In this document: positions 4,065 through 61,300 of the stretch, one piece after another
Layout: every line of letters begins with the position of its first letter
Numbering within the stretch: position 1 is the stretch's first letter
NCBI GenBank assembly: GCA_964016885.1
Contig: OZ024756.1
Location: 19,034,001 to 19,098,000 of the forward strand
DNA: 64,000 nucleotides
DNA from: Eledone cirrhosa
Taxonomy: Eukaryota
Reading direction: 5' to 3'
Translations under genes and position numbers: made by a program
The notes under the pieces: generated by a model
The model's database searches: none
The model's input: only the letters and a program-made list of their open reading frames with translations
What the model was told of the DNA's origin: nothing

Positions 4065-6755
4065 AAGAACTTTTTCGACCTTGAGAAAAATAAGGGATTG
4101 TCTGCATTGGCAATTAACAAGCATAAACAGTTTCAAGAATGAAATAAACTAGTTTAAAATGAGAGAAAAAGATGAGAAAGTCTAAGAGAGAGATTTTCTG
4201 ATGGTACCTACTGAATAGATCAAGGATAATGAGGAGAGGATGAGGAATACTAAAGTAAGAGAAGCTGTTCTATAAGGGAGACTGACTTTGATAGTAAACA
4301 TTACAATAATTAATGGTATACATACATCTGTACCACCTGAGTCATGGCTGGATGTCTAGAGAGAGAGAAATAAAATAAGGAAGATTAGCTTAACTTGGGA
4401 GCAATTTCTTCTAATTTTGATATATAATATCATTTATGGTGTCTCTGATATCAGAGTTTCACCAGATATTTGGGTGGTATCGGTAGGGTGGTGGATTGGC
4501 TGTAGAATCGGTAGAACGTTAGACAACATGCTTTACAGCATAGAGTTACGTCCTTTTACATTCTGAGTTCAAATCCCGCTGAGGTAAGCTTTGCCTTTCA
4601 TCCTAACAGGGAGTCGATAAAATAAAGTACCAGTCAACATATTTAGTGTGCATATGGATATTATACGCAAATATATATGCATATAGATATGATATATGGA
4701 GACACATGGCTTAGTGGTTAGAGCATTGGCCTTGCAATCGAAAGGTTGTGAGTTCAATTCTCAGACCGGATGATGTGTTGTTTCCTTGAGCAAGACATTT
4801 ATTTCACATTGCTCCAGTTTACTCAGCTGTAGAAATGAGATGATAGGGACTGGGGTCCCTATCATTCCACTGCAAAGTGGTCGTGGAGGTGCCACGACAA
4901 AAAGCACCCAGCCTACATTGTAAAGTGGTCGTGTAAGAGAGATACCAAAAAAGCACCCAGTGCACACTGTAAATGTGGTTGGTGTTAGGAAGGGCATCCA
5001 GCTGTAGAAAACCAGCCAGAAACAGTCCTATATGAGCAAGACACAGTCACCCGACCCAACTTTCCTTTAAATGGGACAAACCCATCTAACCGATGCTAGC
5101 ATGGAAGATAGACGTTAAACGATGATGATGATAATGAAATTGAAAAGTAAATTGTGTTCATTAGTGGCTTGCCTAACTGAGGTAACTGGTGATGCTTGAG
5201 AGGGCGCTTGGTTATTCCAGCGCATCAGCCTCGCCTTCACCTGAAGTAACGCTACAAGTATGCTGGCTTGCCTCAAAAATTATTAGAGAGGTTTCCCAGT
5301 GCTCCTCGCGATATTGTTAACTTTTGTTCTGGCAGCAGTTTGTTTGTCCACCCTTTTTGCCTGCCTTTTGTTAAATGTAGTCCTAGATGTATGCGTTACC
5401 TAATATACGTTTTTTTTCCTTTCCGTTTTCTTTCTTTTTCTTATGCTTGTAAAACAATAAAATAAAAATACATTTGCAACGGTATTTACACAACTGTGAA
5501 TAAAATCATAATTGACAATAAGCACAGAAATTGAACAAAGACTGTGTTACACTGTCTTCTATAATCAGTAAAGTAATCCATGATACATTTAAAAAAGACA
5601 ATATTATATTTACATTACAGCGAAATGTTATGATATTGATATAACGGACGCTAACGGAAGTGTTGACATTTAAAAGTTTTAACAGAAGTTAATCTTGAAA
5701 TAAGCAATACATTATATATAAGAATATTTATGTTTAATTAAGAGCTACAAAATTTAGTAGATAAATTACATAATATTCATTCATGATTTATTCAAAGTAA
5801 TCCAACTTATTTTAATAACGTGTTCAGAAACAATATCCCTGACACAGTCTCACAATTCTCCAATCATTATATATTAGATTGTTATTATTATTATTATTAG
5901 TAATAGTAGTAGTAGTAGTAGTAGTAGTAGTGATGGTGCCAGTAAAGATGGTGGTGGTTGTAGCTGCAGCAGCAACACCCACTATATATATATATGAGGC
6001 ACATGGCTTAGTGGTTTGAGCATTGGCCTTGCAAGCGAAAGGATGTGAGTTCAATTCTCAGACCAGGTGATGTGTTGTTTCCTTGAAAGACACTTTATTT
6101 CACATTGCTCCAGTTTGCTCAGCTGTAGAAATGAGATGATAGGGACTTGGGTCCCTATCATTCCACTGCAAAGTGCTCGTGGAGGTGCCACGGCAAAAAA
6201 GCAGCCGGCACTCACTGTAAAGTGGACGACTAGGCGCCACGGAAAAAAAGCACCCAGCACTCACTGTAAATGAGGTTGGTGTTAGGGAGGGCATCCAGCT
6301 GTAGAAATCAAGCCAGAATCAGTTCCCGTCCCACCCTTGCAAGCAGGGAAAAGCGTACATAGAAAAAAAAAAATGAAATGATGAGATATATATACACACA
6401 CACACACACACACACACATACTGTAGTACAAGTTTGGTAGAAATATCCAAGGGTAAGAGCACTCAGTCCATAGGACGAGTTAAGTATAATTAGTTACAAC
6501 AGTGACATATACAGGTACTTAAGTTTTGTTGGGTTATACACCCCAACTCATTCAACCCGTTACATAAACAAAGATGGCTACCTCCACAAAAGACTTTGTA
6601 ACTATATATATATATATATTATATATAATGTAGGAGGTGAGTTTTATTGTAGTACAATAAAGCAATGCAGATATCGGATAAGAAGCACTCTACAGTTTGT
6701 AGGACTGGAGTATACATAATATAAGATCAAAAGATGGTTAAAGGAGTTCCATGTA

Positions 6756-6822
6756 TTTTATTATGCGCATTTCAAAAACAAACATCATCATGCAATAATA
6801 TCTGTGTTTTCATCAGATAAAA
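6756..6822 (-). ncRNA. Minimal type I hammerhead ribozyme, left arm of the same palindrome
   Basis: Reverse complement of 6920-6986 with one substitution in stem II; the core is intact. Confidence 0.78.
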
Positions 6823-57494: not shown

Positions 57495-58349
57495 AATGAT
57501 ACATCTATTTTATTAATATTTATATTTTAATATTAATAACTCCGGAAAATTGTTTTTCCGTAGAGTGCTTCCAATCTACTGTAAAACTCATTCTTTGACA
57601 TAATCATTGAATATTGTTTAACATTTTAATGTATATATATATATATATATATATTTATATCTTCACATTTGATGAGTTGTAGTGCACCTGAGCATTGTAC
57701 ACATTTTCACACTCATTATTATTATATCAGAACTTTCATCCTTATGGGGTCGATAAAATAAAGTACCAGTAATACACTGGGGTAATTGCTGGCCTTGTGC
57801 CTAAAGTAGAAACAATTATTATTATATCAGAACTTTCCTGATTTCTAGTCCTCTAGAAGTCATAACATATATACATATATATATATATATATATATATAT
57901 ATATTTAGGATAGTTATTGAAGGTGAATAGACTACTGGTTAGAGCAATAACAGTCTTGTTTACATGTGTGTGTGTGTTTATATATATACTCTTAAATTTT
58001 ATATATAGACAGACAGAAAGATAGATGTAGGTGCCTTAGGTTATAATTGTTTCTGAGCAGAGACATTAGTATCAAATTCAGAATTGTAGCTAACTGGTGA
58101 TGGTCAATATTGCCAAAAATCAATCAATAGTCGAGTTTTAATAAGTTCGTTTGCCATAAGGAATGTGTAGTGGAGTCAAACATTTCTTGTTCTTACCTTT
58201 CATCTTAGAGGGAAGCAAAAGAAAGAAAAAAAAAATGTTCTTAGGTCTGGAGTCAAATGTTCAAAAAAATTAGACTCTATATTCTTCACAACAAATGAAC
58301 CTATCCAGCTCTACACAGAGAAAGGAGCAGCCATATCCATTCAGCCCCC

Positions 58350-61300
58350 TCATTCTGTCGGTTCACTCTTGTCTTCTGCCAGAATGGCGGGTAAGGTAGT
58401 TCCAGCTAAACCTTCAAAATGAAAGCTGCAGAGGGAAAGAAAATAAAATGAACAACAACGTAGATATTTAAAAGTCATATATAATTATAAATGATGTCCT
58501 CAAGCACATACATGCTATAAAATAGCTTATAAAATTCTTTTTCCATTTTTTAAGGGTCTTCACCTTCCTTTGTAAGCTTTTTTTGTAATATCTCTACATG
58601 TGAACACATCCTTTGAAGAAAAATAAATGTTAAACAGTGATGATGATGATATATATATATAGGTTAACTTTGCCTTTCATCCTTACGAGGGTCGATAAAA
58701 TAAAGTACCAGTAATGCACTGGGGTAATTGCTGACCTTGTGCCAAAAGTAGAAACAATTATTATTATTACACTCCGCTTAGTACGACCCCAAAATACATA
58801 CTGAAGACTACGTATTGAGTGCTCACTATGATGAACCAACAGTAACTTGATTTTACACTCTCTAAACTATATATATATATATATCATCATCATCATCATC
58901 ATCATCATCATCATCATACGTCCGCTTTTCCCTGCTTGCAAGGGTGGGACGGGAACTGATTCTGGCTTGATTTCTACAGCTGGATGCCCTTCTTAACACC
59001 AACCTCATTTACGGTGAGTGCTGGGTGCTTTTTTTCCATGGTGCCTACACATCCACTTTACTGTGTGGGCTGGGTACTTTTTTTTTTTTTTTTTGCCGTG
59101 GCACTTCCACGACCACTTTGCAGTGGAATGATATGGACCCCAGTCCTATCATCTCATTTCTACAGCTGAGTAAACTGGAGAAATGTGAAATAAAGTGTCT
59201 TGCTCAAGGAAACAACACATCAGCCGGTCCGAGAATTGAACTCATAACCTTTCAATTGCAAGGCCAATGCTCTAACCACTAAGCCATGTGCAAATATATA
59301 TATATATATATATATATATATGTGTGTGTGTATGTATACTCTCTGCACTTAAAAGTTCGAGAATGTGGCTTACATACATTGTTTATTTAAAAGTTAATTT
59401 CAACAAGGACAGAATGTAAATATTTTACAATATATAAAAAGTTCAGTTGTCAACCCATCTCCTTCCAAATACAAAGACCTCTATGTAGTTACTCAGCTTG
59501 CTAGAAATAGAAGCCACGTCTACTCCAAATTGCACACTGCTAGCATAATAGAAAAATAAAGGATGAGGAAGCACTTATGGAATAATGTAGTCCTAAATAA
59601 ACTGCAGCAGGAACTAGGAGCTCATTTGTACACTAACTACAATATCTCTTTGCTCCCTCCCTGTCTATATATTCTCCCACAAGACGGAGTTCTATATGTT
59701 CTCCCACCCTAGCTGTATGTTGTCAATCACAAGACACAGAGCTCTATACATTCTCCCACCCTAGCTGTATGTTCTGTAAATCTCTAGAAATAGAAATAAA
59801 ATAATAGAACCCTCACTGCAACGAATTAGTGGCTGGAGTCTCTTCAGTGTTGAATTCTGCAACTGGGATTCCTCGGTTGGCTAACATTGGTGCATACATG
59901 GCAGCTGGGTACACAATTGATGAAGTACCGACCTGGATAGAGAAAATAATTTATTGACTTAACAACACAGGCATTTTAAGGCCAATTTTCCAATATAAAT
60001 TATATATATATATTTATTTATTTATTATTAGTACAGATTAAAGTTTAACCCTTTAGCCTTTAAACTGGCTGTATCTGACCAGAATTCTCTCACCTCTTTC
60101 TGCTCAAACCGGCTGTAACTGCACACTCATACTGATGTTAAGGTATTATTCTCAAAATAAATGTCACAGCAAAAAAAAGCACCCAGCCCACACTGTAAAT
60201 GAGGTTGGTGTTAGGAAGGGCATCCAGCTGTAGAAATCAAGCCAGAATCAGTTCCTGTTTGAAGTCAAGGTCAGCCGACCGGACACTGCTCACAACAGGA
60301 CAACCCGTCTAACCCATGCTAGCATGGAAGAATGGACGTAAAATGGTGATGAAGATATATATATATATATATATATATACACATATATATATCAATCATC
60401 ATTCAATGTTCATTTCCCACACTAGCATGGCTTAGACGACTTGTCCCATTTAAGACAAGTCTGGTTATGTGACCATGTCTTATTCTTACAGAATTAATGT
60501 CAACCACATTGACAAGGTTGATAAATGAAATATCAGTCCAGTGCTGGGAGTCAATGTGTCCCAATCTGAAGAGAAGGATGGACTGCCAGGTTTTAAAATG
60601 CCCCAAACCTATGACTATTAGGAATGAAGGGCCCTTTATCTTTTGAGCCCTTTTCTTTTAGCACTGAAAGATAAGTAAATAGTTTTTAAAAAAAAAAAAA
60701 ATTTAAGTTTAACCGTTTAGCATTTACATTACTCTATATATACTATTGTATTTTAGTGGTAAAAGCTTTACCTTACATAATTATCTCACATAATATCGAA
60801 TCTAAGAGATTTTGATATTGTTTATTTTGAGAACAATACCTTAACATCAGTATGAGCAACCAGTTTGAACAGAAAGTGGTGAGAGAATTCTGGCCGGATA
60901 CAGCCAGTTTAAATGCTAAAGCGTTAAGTTTAAATGCTAAAGCGTTAAGTTTAAAAAGGTTAAAAAAAAACTGAGGTGTACTTACAACCAAGCAAAGGTC
61001 ACATGAATTAAGTATCTCTTGAGTTTTTATCAAGACATTCTGGTCAAGACTTTCTCCAAACCAAACAACATGGGGTCGAAGAAGGCCATTACAACCTGAT
61101 GTTTTGCATCTGAAGAAGATAAACTACAAATACAGACTTCTTTATTTACAGTAGTGCGAGTTAATAGTAAAAAATATCAAATCATTTACACCAGATGTTC
61201 TCAAACTTTTTGGGCCACAGCACCACCACCCCCAACCCTATTTCCAGAGAAACCTGCCTACATGCAAATTGTAAATAATATATACTATGTAAAAATAAAT

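Follow-up and report, generated by a model that had tools for sequence, protein, structure and literature searches.

A conserved and apparently undescribed hairpin at the arm boundary of likely Penelope-like remnants in Eledone cirrhosa

The stretch of 64,000 nucleotides from Eledone cirrhosa analysed here (contig OZ024756.1, positions 19,034,001 to 19,098,000; "the window") contains short insertions that are likely remnants of Penelope-like elements (PLEs), in which a small hairpin, formed by ACTC and GAGTRC, is followed by a tail that runs into a microsatellite. The insertions are of a known kind; the hairpin they carry is real, conserved and, it appears, undescribed as a cis element, and in the palindromic copies the arm that lacks the tail stops just before it. 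The layout of an inverted copy plus a tail is already known for PLEs; the shared hairpin and a longer unpaired end are what differs. The evidence comes from one window and from sequencing reads of one family, designated B.

The consensus can be written as (Y)ACUC - upper stem - loop - upper stem - U/UU/UA bulge - GAGU(R)-CYY, and eight copies fit it (Table 1). The basal stem ACTC/GAGT is often extended by one Y-R pair, the bulge on the 3' side comprises 1-2 nucleotides (nt; T, TT or TA), the upper stem varies in sequence, the loop has 3-25 nt and RCYY follows the stem. The seven main examples named by an earlier reading made from the letters alone (the sequence-only reading) all lie at the positions given there, and the hairpin is more sharply defined than that reading described. 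Expected counts come from dinucleotide-shuffled versions of the sequence (200 block-wise shuffles). With a microsatellite required 30-75 nt downstream, the loose motif was observed seven times against 0.12 ± 0.34 expected (maximum 2), while the loose motif alone was only mildly enriched (10 versus 2.8, maximum 10); a structural descriptor of stem and bulge gave 7 versus 0.96 (maximum 5), and a strict pattern 5 versus 0.21, one of the five (52944-52989) not being a copy. A scan of public collections for the motif followed by (TA)n yielded 70 viral and 118 metagenome loci (25 of the 64 metagenome parts), with an upstream hammerhead in none of the 188 and an upper stem in 23. These loci were reused as a chance set: an upper stem of at least 3 base pairs (bp) occurs in six of the eight copies and in 23/188 chance matches (p = 1.5e-4). 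The upper stem of these six has 3-7 bp; of the two exceptions, 58771 needs a 5' insert and 23452 has 2 bp.

A covariance model was built from five copies; plain MAFFT had misaligned the variable loops. The model recovered both held-out copies, 6711 (19.9 bits) and 58771 (16.8 bits), and yielded a new one outside the training set, 23432-23452 on the reverse strand (17.6 bits, E 0.18), whose basal stem shows an A-U to G-C swap relative to ACTC/GAGT. Across these eight model hits pairing was kept in 93.8% of cells, compared with 23-50% in slid controls, figures that lean in favour of the model because the alignment was fitted to it. Four further hits at E 3-4 (63062, 58993 and the duplicated 41507/42221) had been dropped before the count; when they are kept, 91.7% of cells pair. 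Both sides had changed in four of the eight pairs, namely all three upper-stem pairs and one basal pair, a degree of covariation reached in 0 of 500 shuffles. Except for B1 and B2 the element bodies have no alignable sequence in common, in agreement with the earlier description of otherwise unrelated elements, and therefore seven families bear the hairpin. The inner lengths of 9, 11, 12, 12, 12, 17, 20 and 42 nt do not fit a single reading frame, so that protein-coding constraint, which was considered and rejected, is no explanation. A second pairing, between bulge-GA and the tail in the folds of C and D, was set aside, the majority change 42627 G>C removing one of its four pairs in family B.

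The assignment to PLEs was judged by hammerhead, inversion, tandem and target features, not by a reverse transcriptase (RT) gene. Where a hammerhead is present, hammerhead, hairpin and tail follow in that order on one strand. Predicted minimal type I hammerheads of the pseudo-long-terminal-repeat (pLTR) type were found in A, B1, B2 and C (direct arm), in D (inverted arm only) and upstream of the decayed copy H. Those of A, B1, B2 and C have a short or palindromic stem III and lie 66-105 nt upstream on the same strand, that of H lies 236 nt upstream, and none was found in F, G or E. At 23485-23505 on the forward strand, opposite to K and without overlap with its direct part, GAAAC, a palindromic stem III and GTC possibly represent the 3' half of a hammerhead; such an arrangement would fit non-overlapping twin priming. 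A covariance search with Rfam gave 52 matches to E 1, none of them a hammerhead or over the motif; one tRNA-like fragment of a short interspersed element (SINE) passes the gathering score. An inverted, 5'-truncated copy stands head to head with the direct one in four of the eight model hits and in E, and the reads contain opposite-strand and tandem joints. All eight hits end in (TA)n or (TG)n, and target-site duplications are unreadable because the flanks are such repeats. The tail to the microsatellite measures 39-62 nt in the seven main copies, close to the 30-60 nt before (TA)n given by the sequence-only reading, with the difference that 6480 meets (TG)n first. Most tails (6628-6683, 22280-22320, 30857-30918, 42611-42650) also contain a second hairpin of 5-11 bp, unrelated in sequence, and close with a pyrimidine-rich run before TATATA.

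The variants that had been listed beside the main examples fared unevenly. That at 895 is a plausible decayed copy with a hammerhead upstream; 41512 has no upper stem, and 8210 is weak (16-nt tail, AAGT). The one at 52878 is an ACTA copy (E) with a palindrome, for which no (TA)n end was found.

The tail-less arms of A, B1, C and D stop 0-8 nt before the ACTC position, the ranges in Table 1 arising because A/T letters are ambiguous with the (TA)n target which the arms then enter. In E the inverted arm of 52890-53019 stops 8-15 nt before ACTA, at (ATC)n, and F has a weak, short arm stopping 10-4 nt before ACTC. Measured to the last sure match, the arm ends lie 3-8 nt from ACTC (standard deviation, sd, 2.4) and 72-96 nt from the 3' end (sd 10.5). 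If ends were uniform along the direct copy, the joint probability for five palindromes would be about 6e-6, calculated with a 16-nt window chosen post hoc, after the data had been seen. Of the five arm ends that had been proposed, 6716, 22106-22257, 30826 and 57535 agree; 53324 was rejected, as its arm continues 25 nt beyond the ACTC at 53329 and no GAGTRCT follows. The spacers between near-symmetric arms are 4 (B1), 11 (C) and 17 nt (A), and about 11-13 nt by eye in E. The inverted arm of D, by comparison, holds about 68 nt that are absent from its direct arm, including the whole hammerhead.

Other palindromes of the window are of different form. That at 41225-42516 is 1.3 kb long, with arms 97% identical, nested smaller elements and microsatellites in both arms and an 85-nt unpaired left end without the motif; it stops at 42516, 73 nt before the hairpin of B2 (42589), and the element B2 starts exactly at the stop of its right arm. 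The palindrome may have arisen by the copying of one whole composite RNA, or may be an artefact of the assembly. The element at 42653-42896 includes a palindrome (42740-42896), an 85-nt unpaired end, a different long hairpin 6 nt after the arm end and TTGAGCTC twice; its hairpin is possibly a variant of the motif (the second copy about 46 nt from TATA) and was not counted. An older palindrome at 45989-46195 has a small CCGA/TCGG hairpin and some 45 nt of unpaired sequence before (TA)n, and represents a family of conventional tail length without the motif. An old, MITE-like palindrome (53139-53353; MITE, miniature inverted-repeat transposable element), about 70% identical, is the one to which the rejected arm end 53324 belongs; it has neither hammerhead nor motif.

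Family B was followed in reads from four runs, placed on the reference 42491-42685 (copy B2) at 80% likeness. Organism A contributed 7793 and 8216 restriction-site-associated DNA (RAD) reads as well as 14189 contigs, and a second species, organism B, 10243 contigs; by these numbers the family is abundant and common to two species. Among the 40 of 110 variant rows listed, none fell in ACTC (42589-92), in TTGAGTAC (42602-09) or in the hammerhead core, and hammerhead loop II and the hairpin loop vary. The change 42594 G>A preserves the pair with T42600; 42595 C>A and 42599 G>A each break one. In the X1 run 80 contigs exit the element at 42580, 8 nt before ACTC, and 76 at the tail end; the consensus of the 42580 exits begins TATATATA, a (TA)n junction, with an agreement of 0.53. 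Loose ends at 42565-70 in the other three runs mark the departure of the reference from the family consensus. Runs X9 and X10 contain, with 16 and 8 read starts respectively, a direct tandem joint (42579 -> 42520) in several sequence variants; as the intervening letters continue to match the element for about five bases, the junction lies 2-7 nt before ACTC. The corresponding 77-nt hammerhead-only tandem unit, without hairpin or tail, is present in organism A in several sequence variants and is possibly a retrozyme-like array born at the inner site. Opposite-strand joints mostly connect positions 42520-42543, and some connect 42518-42541 to 42579-42598; the joints 42531/42579 and 42538/42588 fit tail-bearing arms that start at the hairpin. 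The depth ratio of hammerhead to hairpin was 1.7, 1.8, 1.5 and 1.2 in the four runs, an excess expected if many arms lack hairpin and tail and confounded by alignment breaks. The proposal that the hairpin is a cis signal fixing the palindrome boundary is thus upheld as regards conservation and the tie to the tail-less arm end (arm-end spread and read junctions); as to the kind of signal, internal RT start sites set by an RNA element are preferred here to a nick or a second-strand stop.

For the mechanism, a relevant model is PAc, a Poseidon PLE of Anolis carolinensis (Frangieh et al. 2024, PMC11167929). According to the available part of that paper, the PAc protein works on AT-rich DNA, cutting each strand and extending it; the tail lies between two internal RT start sites, RNA 3' of the inner site is needed, the RNA is used uncleaved and the protein is predicted to be a dimer. 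The hairpin described here may well be an RNA element that is gripped by the RT-endonuclease and sets two internal RT start sites, one per side. From the order of the parts, their conservation, the position of the arm ends and the microsatellite targets, all of them observed, we infer the enzymatic steps. By analogy with PAc biochemistry, the protein would cut both strands of the (TA)n target and prime on both ends. A complementary DNA (cDNA) begun at the outer start, 39-62 nt 3' of the hairpin, would become the tail-bearing arm; one begun at the inner start, which lies just 5' of the hairpin and is presumably aided by A/U microhomology to the target, would become the inverted arm or, in a tandem, the upstream unit. 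Both cDNAs would be shortened toward the 5' end and then joined head to head via microhomology. Tail-less arms indeed stop 0-15 nt 5' of the hairpin in A/T-rich sequence and the insertions end in microsatellites. Internal start sites are favoured, in particular over a fold-back of the cDNA, because the inner site also ends direct tandem units and because the inverted arm of D includes sequence that its tail-bearing arm lacks. Thermodynamically the hairpin is weak and therefore probably needs protein.

A number of observations weigh against these internal start sites. The near-symmetric arms and short spacers of A, B1, C and E are more simply predicted by snap-back, and the asymmetry of D could be a later central deletion. 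A clear inverted arm is absent from B2, G and K, as well as from F beyond its weak arm, that is from half of the model hits, and the motif is absent from three one-sided palindromes (41225-42516, 42740-42896, 45989-46114). The inner start of PAc lies inside an AC-rich loop, not 5' of the hairpin, and its two starts are not strand-specific. In the reads the 42580 cluster was seen in one of four runs (24 of 569 loose-end rows listed), depth and joints at 42565-42588 are confounded by differences between the reference and the consensus of the family in that stretch, and the tandem joint may come from few loci. Folding energies are about equal for sense and antisense strands and for RNA and DNA, and whole-tail folding z-scores are weak (2 of 12 below -2, the best fold there using another pairing). 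Finally, no RT or endonuclease gene was found in the 64-kb window among 39 open reading frames (ORFs) of at least 120 aa, none of them of the RT-GIY-YIG type, and the sole RT match among seven ORFs scanned with Pfam was that of a long interspersed element (LINE); the absence of an RT-endonuclease ORF is expected because the elements are stubs of 100-400 nt.

A more elaborate form of the same idea, rather doubtful in our judgement, is a two-state RNA switch for a dimeric RT, in which GAGU would pair with ACUC in cis or GAGURCUY with a second RNA; two templates and two RTs would then lie side by side and prime from both target strands. The 8-mer GAGURCUY is fully self-complementary in seven of the eight model hits, the GAGCGCTT change in copy K preserves this self-pairing, and position 8 is a pyrimidine in 8/8 hits versus 112/188 chance matches (p = 0.016). 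Against it, B2 (GAGTACCT) breaks the self-pairing, no C>T at 42610 being among the rows listed, and pairing with the base that precedes ACUC accounts for the R just as well. If true, this reading would make the hairpin the first RNA element of a PLE clade that is conserved in sequence and positions the RT; it would be the counterpart of a telomerase template boundary or of the hepadnaviral epsilon signal, and might extend into other clades.

Other explanations have to be weighed against internal RT start sites. In a snap-back with a stop signal, a single cDNA begun at the tail end would fold back, and copying would halt or jump to the target at a hairpin in the single-stranded cDNA. This is unlikely, but of the alternatives it comes closest: near-symmetric arms with 4-17-nt spacers in A, B1 and C are what it predicts, the cDNA strand folds as well as the sense strand, and self-priming on an antisense template is proposed for head-to-head PLE palindromes in the available part of PMC3846280. 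Yet the inverted arm of D exceeds the direct arm, fold-back cannot make the direct tandem units that also end at the inner site, and a DNA hairpin of 2-8 kcal/mol would be a weak block with no need for conserved ACTC/GAGTRC letters. It is less likely still that the site acts at the DNA level, the GIY-YIG endonuclease recognising the near-palindrome GAGTRCTY or an extruded hairpin, nicking 5' of it and trimming the tail of one copy. The 8-mer is near-palindromic, the tail is ascribed to endonuclease-mediated resolution by Craig et al. (available part of PMC8557442), and the tail of the D. virilis element is needed for endonuclease recognition, as cited in the available part of Frangieh et al. 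(PMC11167929). However, GAGTGCTT is no DNA palindrome and self-pairs as RNA via G-U, the tail ends of PAc are RT start sites and not nicks, with cutting at AT-rich target DNA (same source), and the arm ends here are spread across 0-15 nt.

Alternatively, the hairpin could be a bystander, kept for another job such as assembly of the ribonucleoprotein, RNA dimerisation for a dimeric hammerhead, or export, with the A/T-rich stretch before it simply annealing best to a (TA)n primer. The merging of the arm ends into TA-like letters is consistent with this, as are the self-complementary 8-mer and the palindromic stem III, which resembles that of dimeric PLE ribozymes as treated in the available part of PMC4209133. 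On the other hand, A, C and D are A/T-rich all along the 50-100 nt upstream, yet their arms all end within 8 nt of ACTC, and the arm of E also ends there though joined to (ATC)n, so that this explanation is distinctly improbable. Chance, or an element other than a PLE (such as a non-autonomous DNA element of Helentron type, with its 3' stem-loop), is hardly credible: the mild enrichment of the loose motif alone and a window without a PLE ORF would suit it, but motif plus tail far exceed expectation in the shuffles, the stems covary, and in-register type I hammerheads occur in five of the eight hits, in four of them on the direct arm and in the fifth on the inverted one, versus 0/188 chance loci. 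Shuffles, hammerhead register, reads and covariation together largely refute it.

In public collections hammerhead core plus motif gave 120 viral loci, 0 with both stem II and upper stem and 0 with (TA)n, and a 24-nt word of family B gave 0 matches in public genome contigs and viral contigs; because these collections hold little animal DNA, the scans say nothing on the range of the motif in animals. In accordance with the statement that the motif was unfamiliar, no published description of the shared hairpin or of a 72-96-nt unpaired end was found in the literature and supplements, Repbase, the O. vulgaris Zenodo library and several supplements lying outside the search. The origin of the head-to-head repeats and one-sided tails of PLEs is named an open problem in PMC8557442 (section 15, in the part available), and in the sole in vitro study, whose available part defines no motif, the RNA bound by the protein was confined to 172 nt (PMC11167929). 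An element of 20-30 nt that recurs in diverged families, carries compensatory changes of natural origin and keeps a fixed distance to one end of the insertion offers a direct mutational test of where a telomerase-related RT binds and starts. The hairpin would also mark non-coding PLE stubs for annotation, and it is a candidate minimal cargo signal for PLE-based insertion tools.

Table 1. Coordinates of the hairpin copies, their arms and tails, and other features of the window
Feature	Position	Strand	Remarks
Decayed copy H	863..895	-	GAGC; long-stem-II hammerhead starting 1131; 88-nt tail; no inverted arm
Motif copy F	6457..6480	-	bulge of a single T; tail of 39 nt to (TG)n; short, weak inverted arm near 6590
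Tail of A	6628..6683	-	56 nt, ends at (TA)n
Motif copy A	6683..6711	-	ACTC, 4-bp upper stem, TA bulge, GAGTGCTT
Direct tail-bearing arm of A	6716..6862	-	predicted minimal type I hammerhead ~6756-6822, stem III palindromic
Inverted arm of A	6880..7026	+	99% complementary; stops 4-0 nt before ACTC position, enters (TA)n
Copine-3-like exon	10473-10958	-	elements sit within or near this host gene
Inverted arm of B1	22106..22179	-	stops 8-0 nt before ACTC position at (TA)n
Predicted type I hammerhead of B1	22184..22230	+	
Motif copy B1	22257..22280	+	then 41-nt tail to (TA)n (to 22320)
New motif copy K	23432..23452	-	GCTC/GAGC basal stem, TT bulge, GAGCGCTT; tail ~40 nt to (TA)n
Inverted arm of C	30452..30633	-	predicted hammerhead at 30549; stops 7 nt before ACTC position
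Direct arm of C	30645..30826	+	predicted hammerhead ~30723-30780
Motif copy C	30834..30857	+	then 62-nt tail to (TA)n (to 30918)
Open LINE ORF, 879 aa	37505-40141	-	PHD finger after RT domain (Pfam scan)
Predicted type I hammerhead of B2	42518..42566	+	same family as B1; no inverted arm of its own
Motif copy B2	42589..42611	+	GAGTACCT; then 40-nt tail to TATATA (to 42650)
Variant copy E	52859..52878	-	ACTA; palindrome 52890-53019; no (TA)n end found
Inverted arm of D	57396..57499	-	whole predicted hammerhead ~57441-57491; stops 3-0 nt before ACTC position
Short direct arm of D	57500..57535	+	no hammerhead
Motif copy D	57539..57570	+	7-bp upper stem, TA bulge; then 62-nt tail to (TA)n (to 57631)
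Motif copy G	58771..58824	+	long loop, 5' insert; directly after unrelated SINE-like end; 44-nt tail to (TA)n

The window is animal DNA rich in microsatellites. For the copine exon at about 10.5-10.8 kb the closest proteins are those of Octopus vulgaris (94% identity), Argonauta (92%) and O. sinensis (91%), other matches reaching at most 78%, which identifies an octopod host. Non-coding PLE stubs are dense, about 8-10 in the 64 kb; in O. vulgaris 190 PLE families account for 6.83% of the genome, and 30 Penelope families are listed as recently active, according to the available part of PMC13282606. The elements F and A stand back to back (6419-7040) with one (TA)n run common to both, which suggests that one inserted into the microsatellite left by the other, and the element of copy K has (TA)n on both sides. 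The LINE with the open 879-aa ORF we take to be of the RTE type. A broken GC-rich LINE in several frames (34946-37158, reverse strand) looks CRE/NeSL-like by eye, Pfam being blank for the four pieces scanned.

In comparison with L1 twin priming, in which both target strands prime, the second start is random and the inverted 5' part is joined by microhomology without overlap of the parts, the present elements would have their second start set by an RNA motif, and their arms overlap as a rule. The canonical unit of endonuclease-positive PLEs (available parts of PMC8557442 and PMC3846280) has the same 5' truncation, adjacent inverted copy, one-sided tail, partial tandems and pLTR hammerhead, and microsatellite targets alike, the latter noted for Naiad and Neptune (PMC8557442). 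The one-sided tail is there an optional feature of 30-40 bp, ascribed to endonuclease resolution, and the available descriptions hold no conserved hairpin; here a one-sided tail is present too, as the sequence-only reading had stated for PLEs, but the unpaired end of 72-96 nt lies outside that range and includes the hairpin. The Naiads of octopus have (TA)n targets, no canonical hammerhead and an N-terminal endonuclease (available part of PMC8557442). Naiad membership was rejected, given the hammerheads present here, and the remnants probably belong to another clade, because octopus Naiads lack canonical hammerheads; the Neptune clade, which is recognised by RT phylogeny and a Zn-finger linker, would be our guess. 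Among 37 places with GAGTGCT, GAGTACT or GAGTACC in the supplement of PMC8557442, ACTC was found close upstream in two (by eye), and upper stem plus bulge in none.

The minimal PLE hammerheads (Cervera and de la Pena 2014, PMC4209133) and the animal non-LTR retrozymes (PMC7229834, bioRxiv 10.64898/2026.07.22.740005) are of the same type I, pLTR-derived and with palindromic stem III, and are dispersed as monomers or on opposite strands 100-700 bp apart, as here. The available parts of these papers treat the ribozyme and tandem arrays and describe nothing conserved downstream. No retrozyme-type tandem array was found in the window, where the copies are monomers or inverted pairs; the 77-nt tandem joint of family B lies elsewhere. 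PAc shows the same order of hammerhead, stem-loop and tail between two internal RT starts, with AT-rich targets, and the RNA letters of its Fig. S1, read by eye, give a similar outline of basal stem, 3'-side bulge, upper stem and AC-rich loop (available part of PMC11167929). The same letters contain neither ACUC nor GAGURC, the inner start lies in the loop versus 0-15 nt 5' of the stem here, and the tail has 30-40 nt versus an unpaired end of 72-96 nt. Furthermore, the region is protein-coding in PAc, whereas the lengths are out of frame here, and the available part of that paper reports no cross-family motif.

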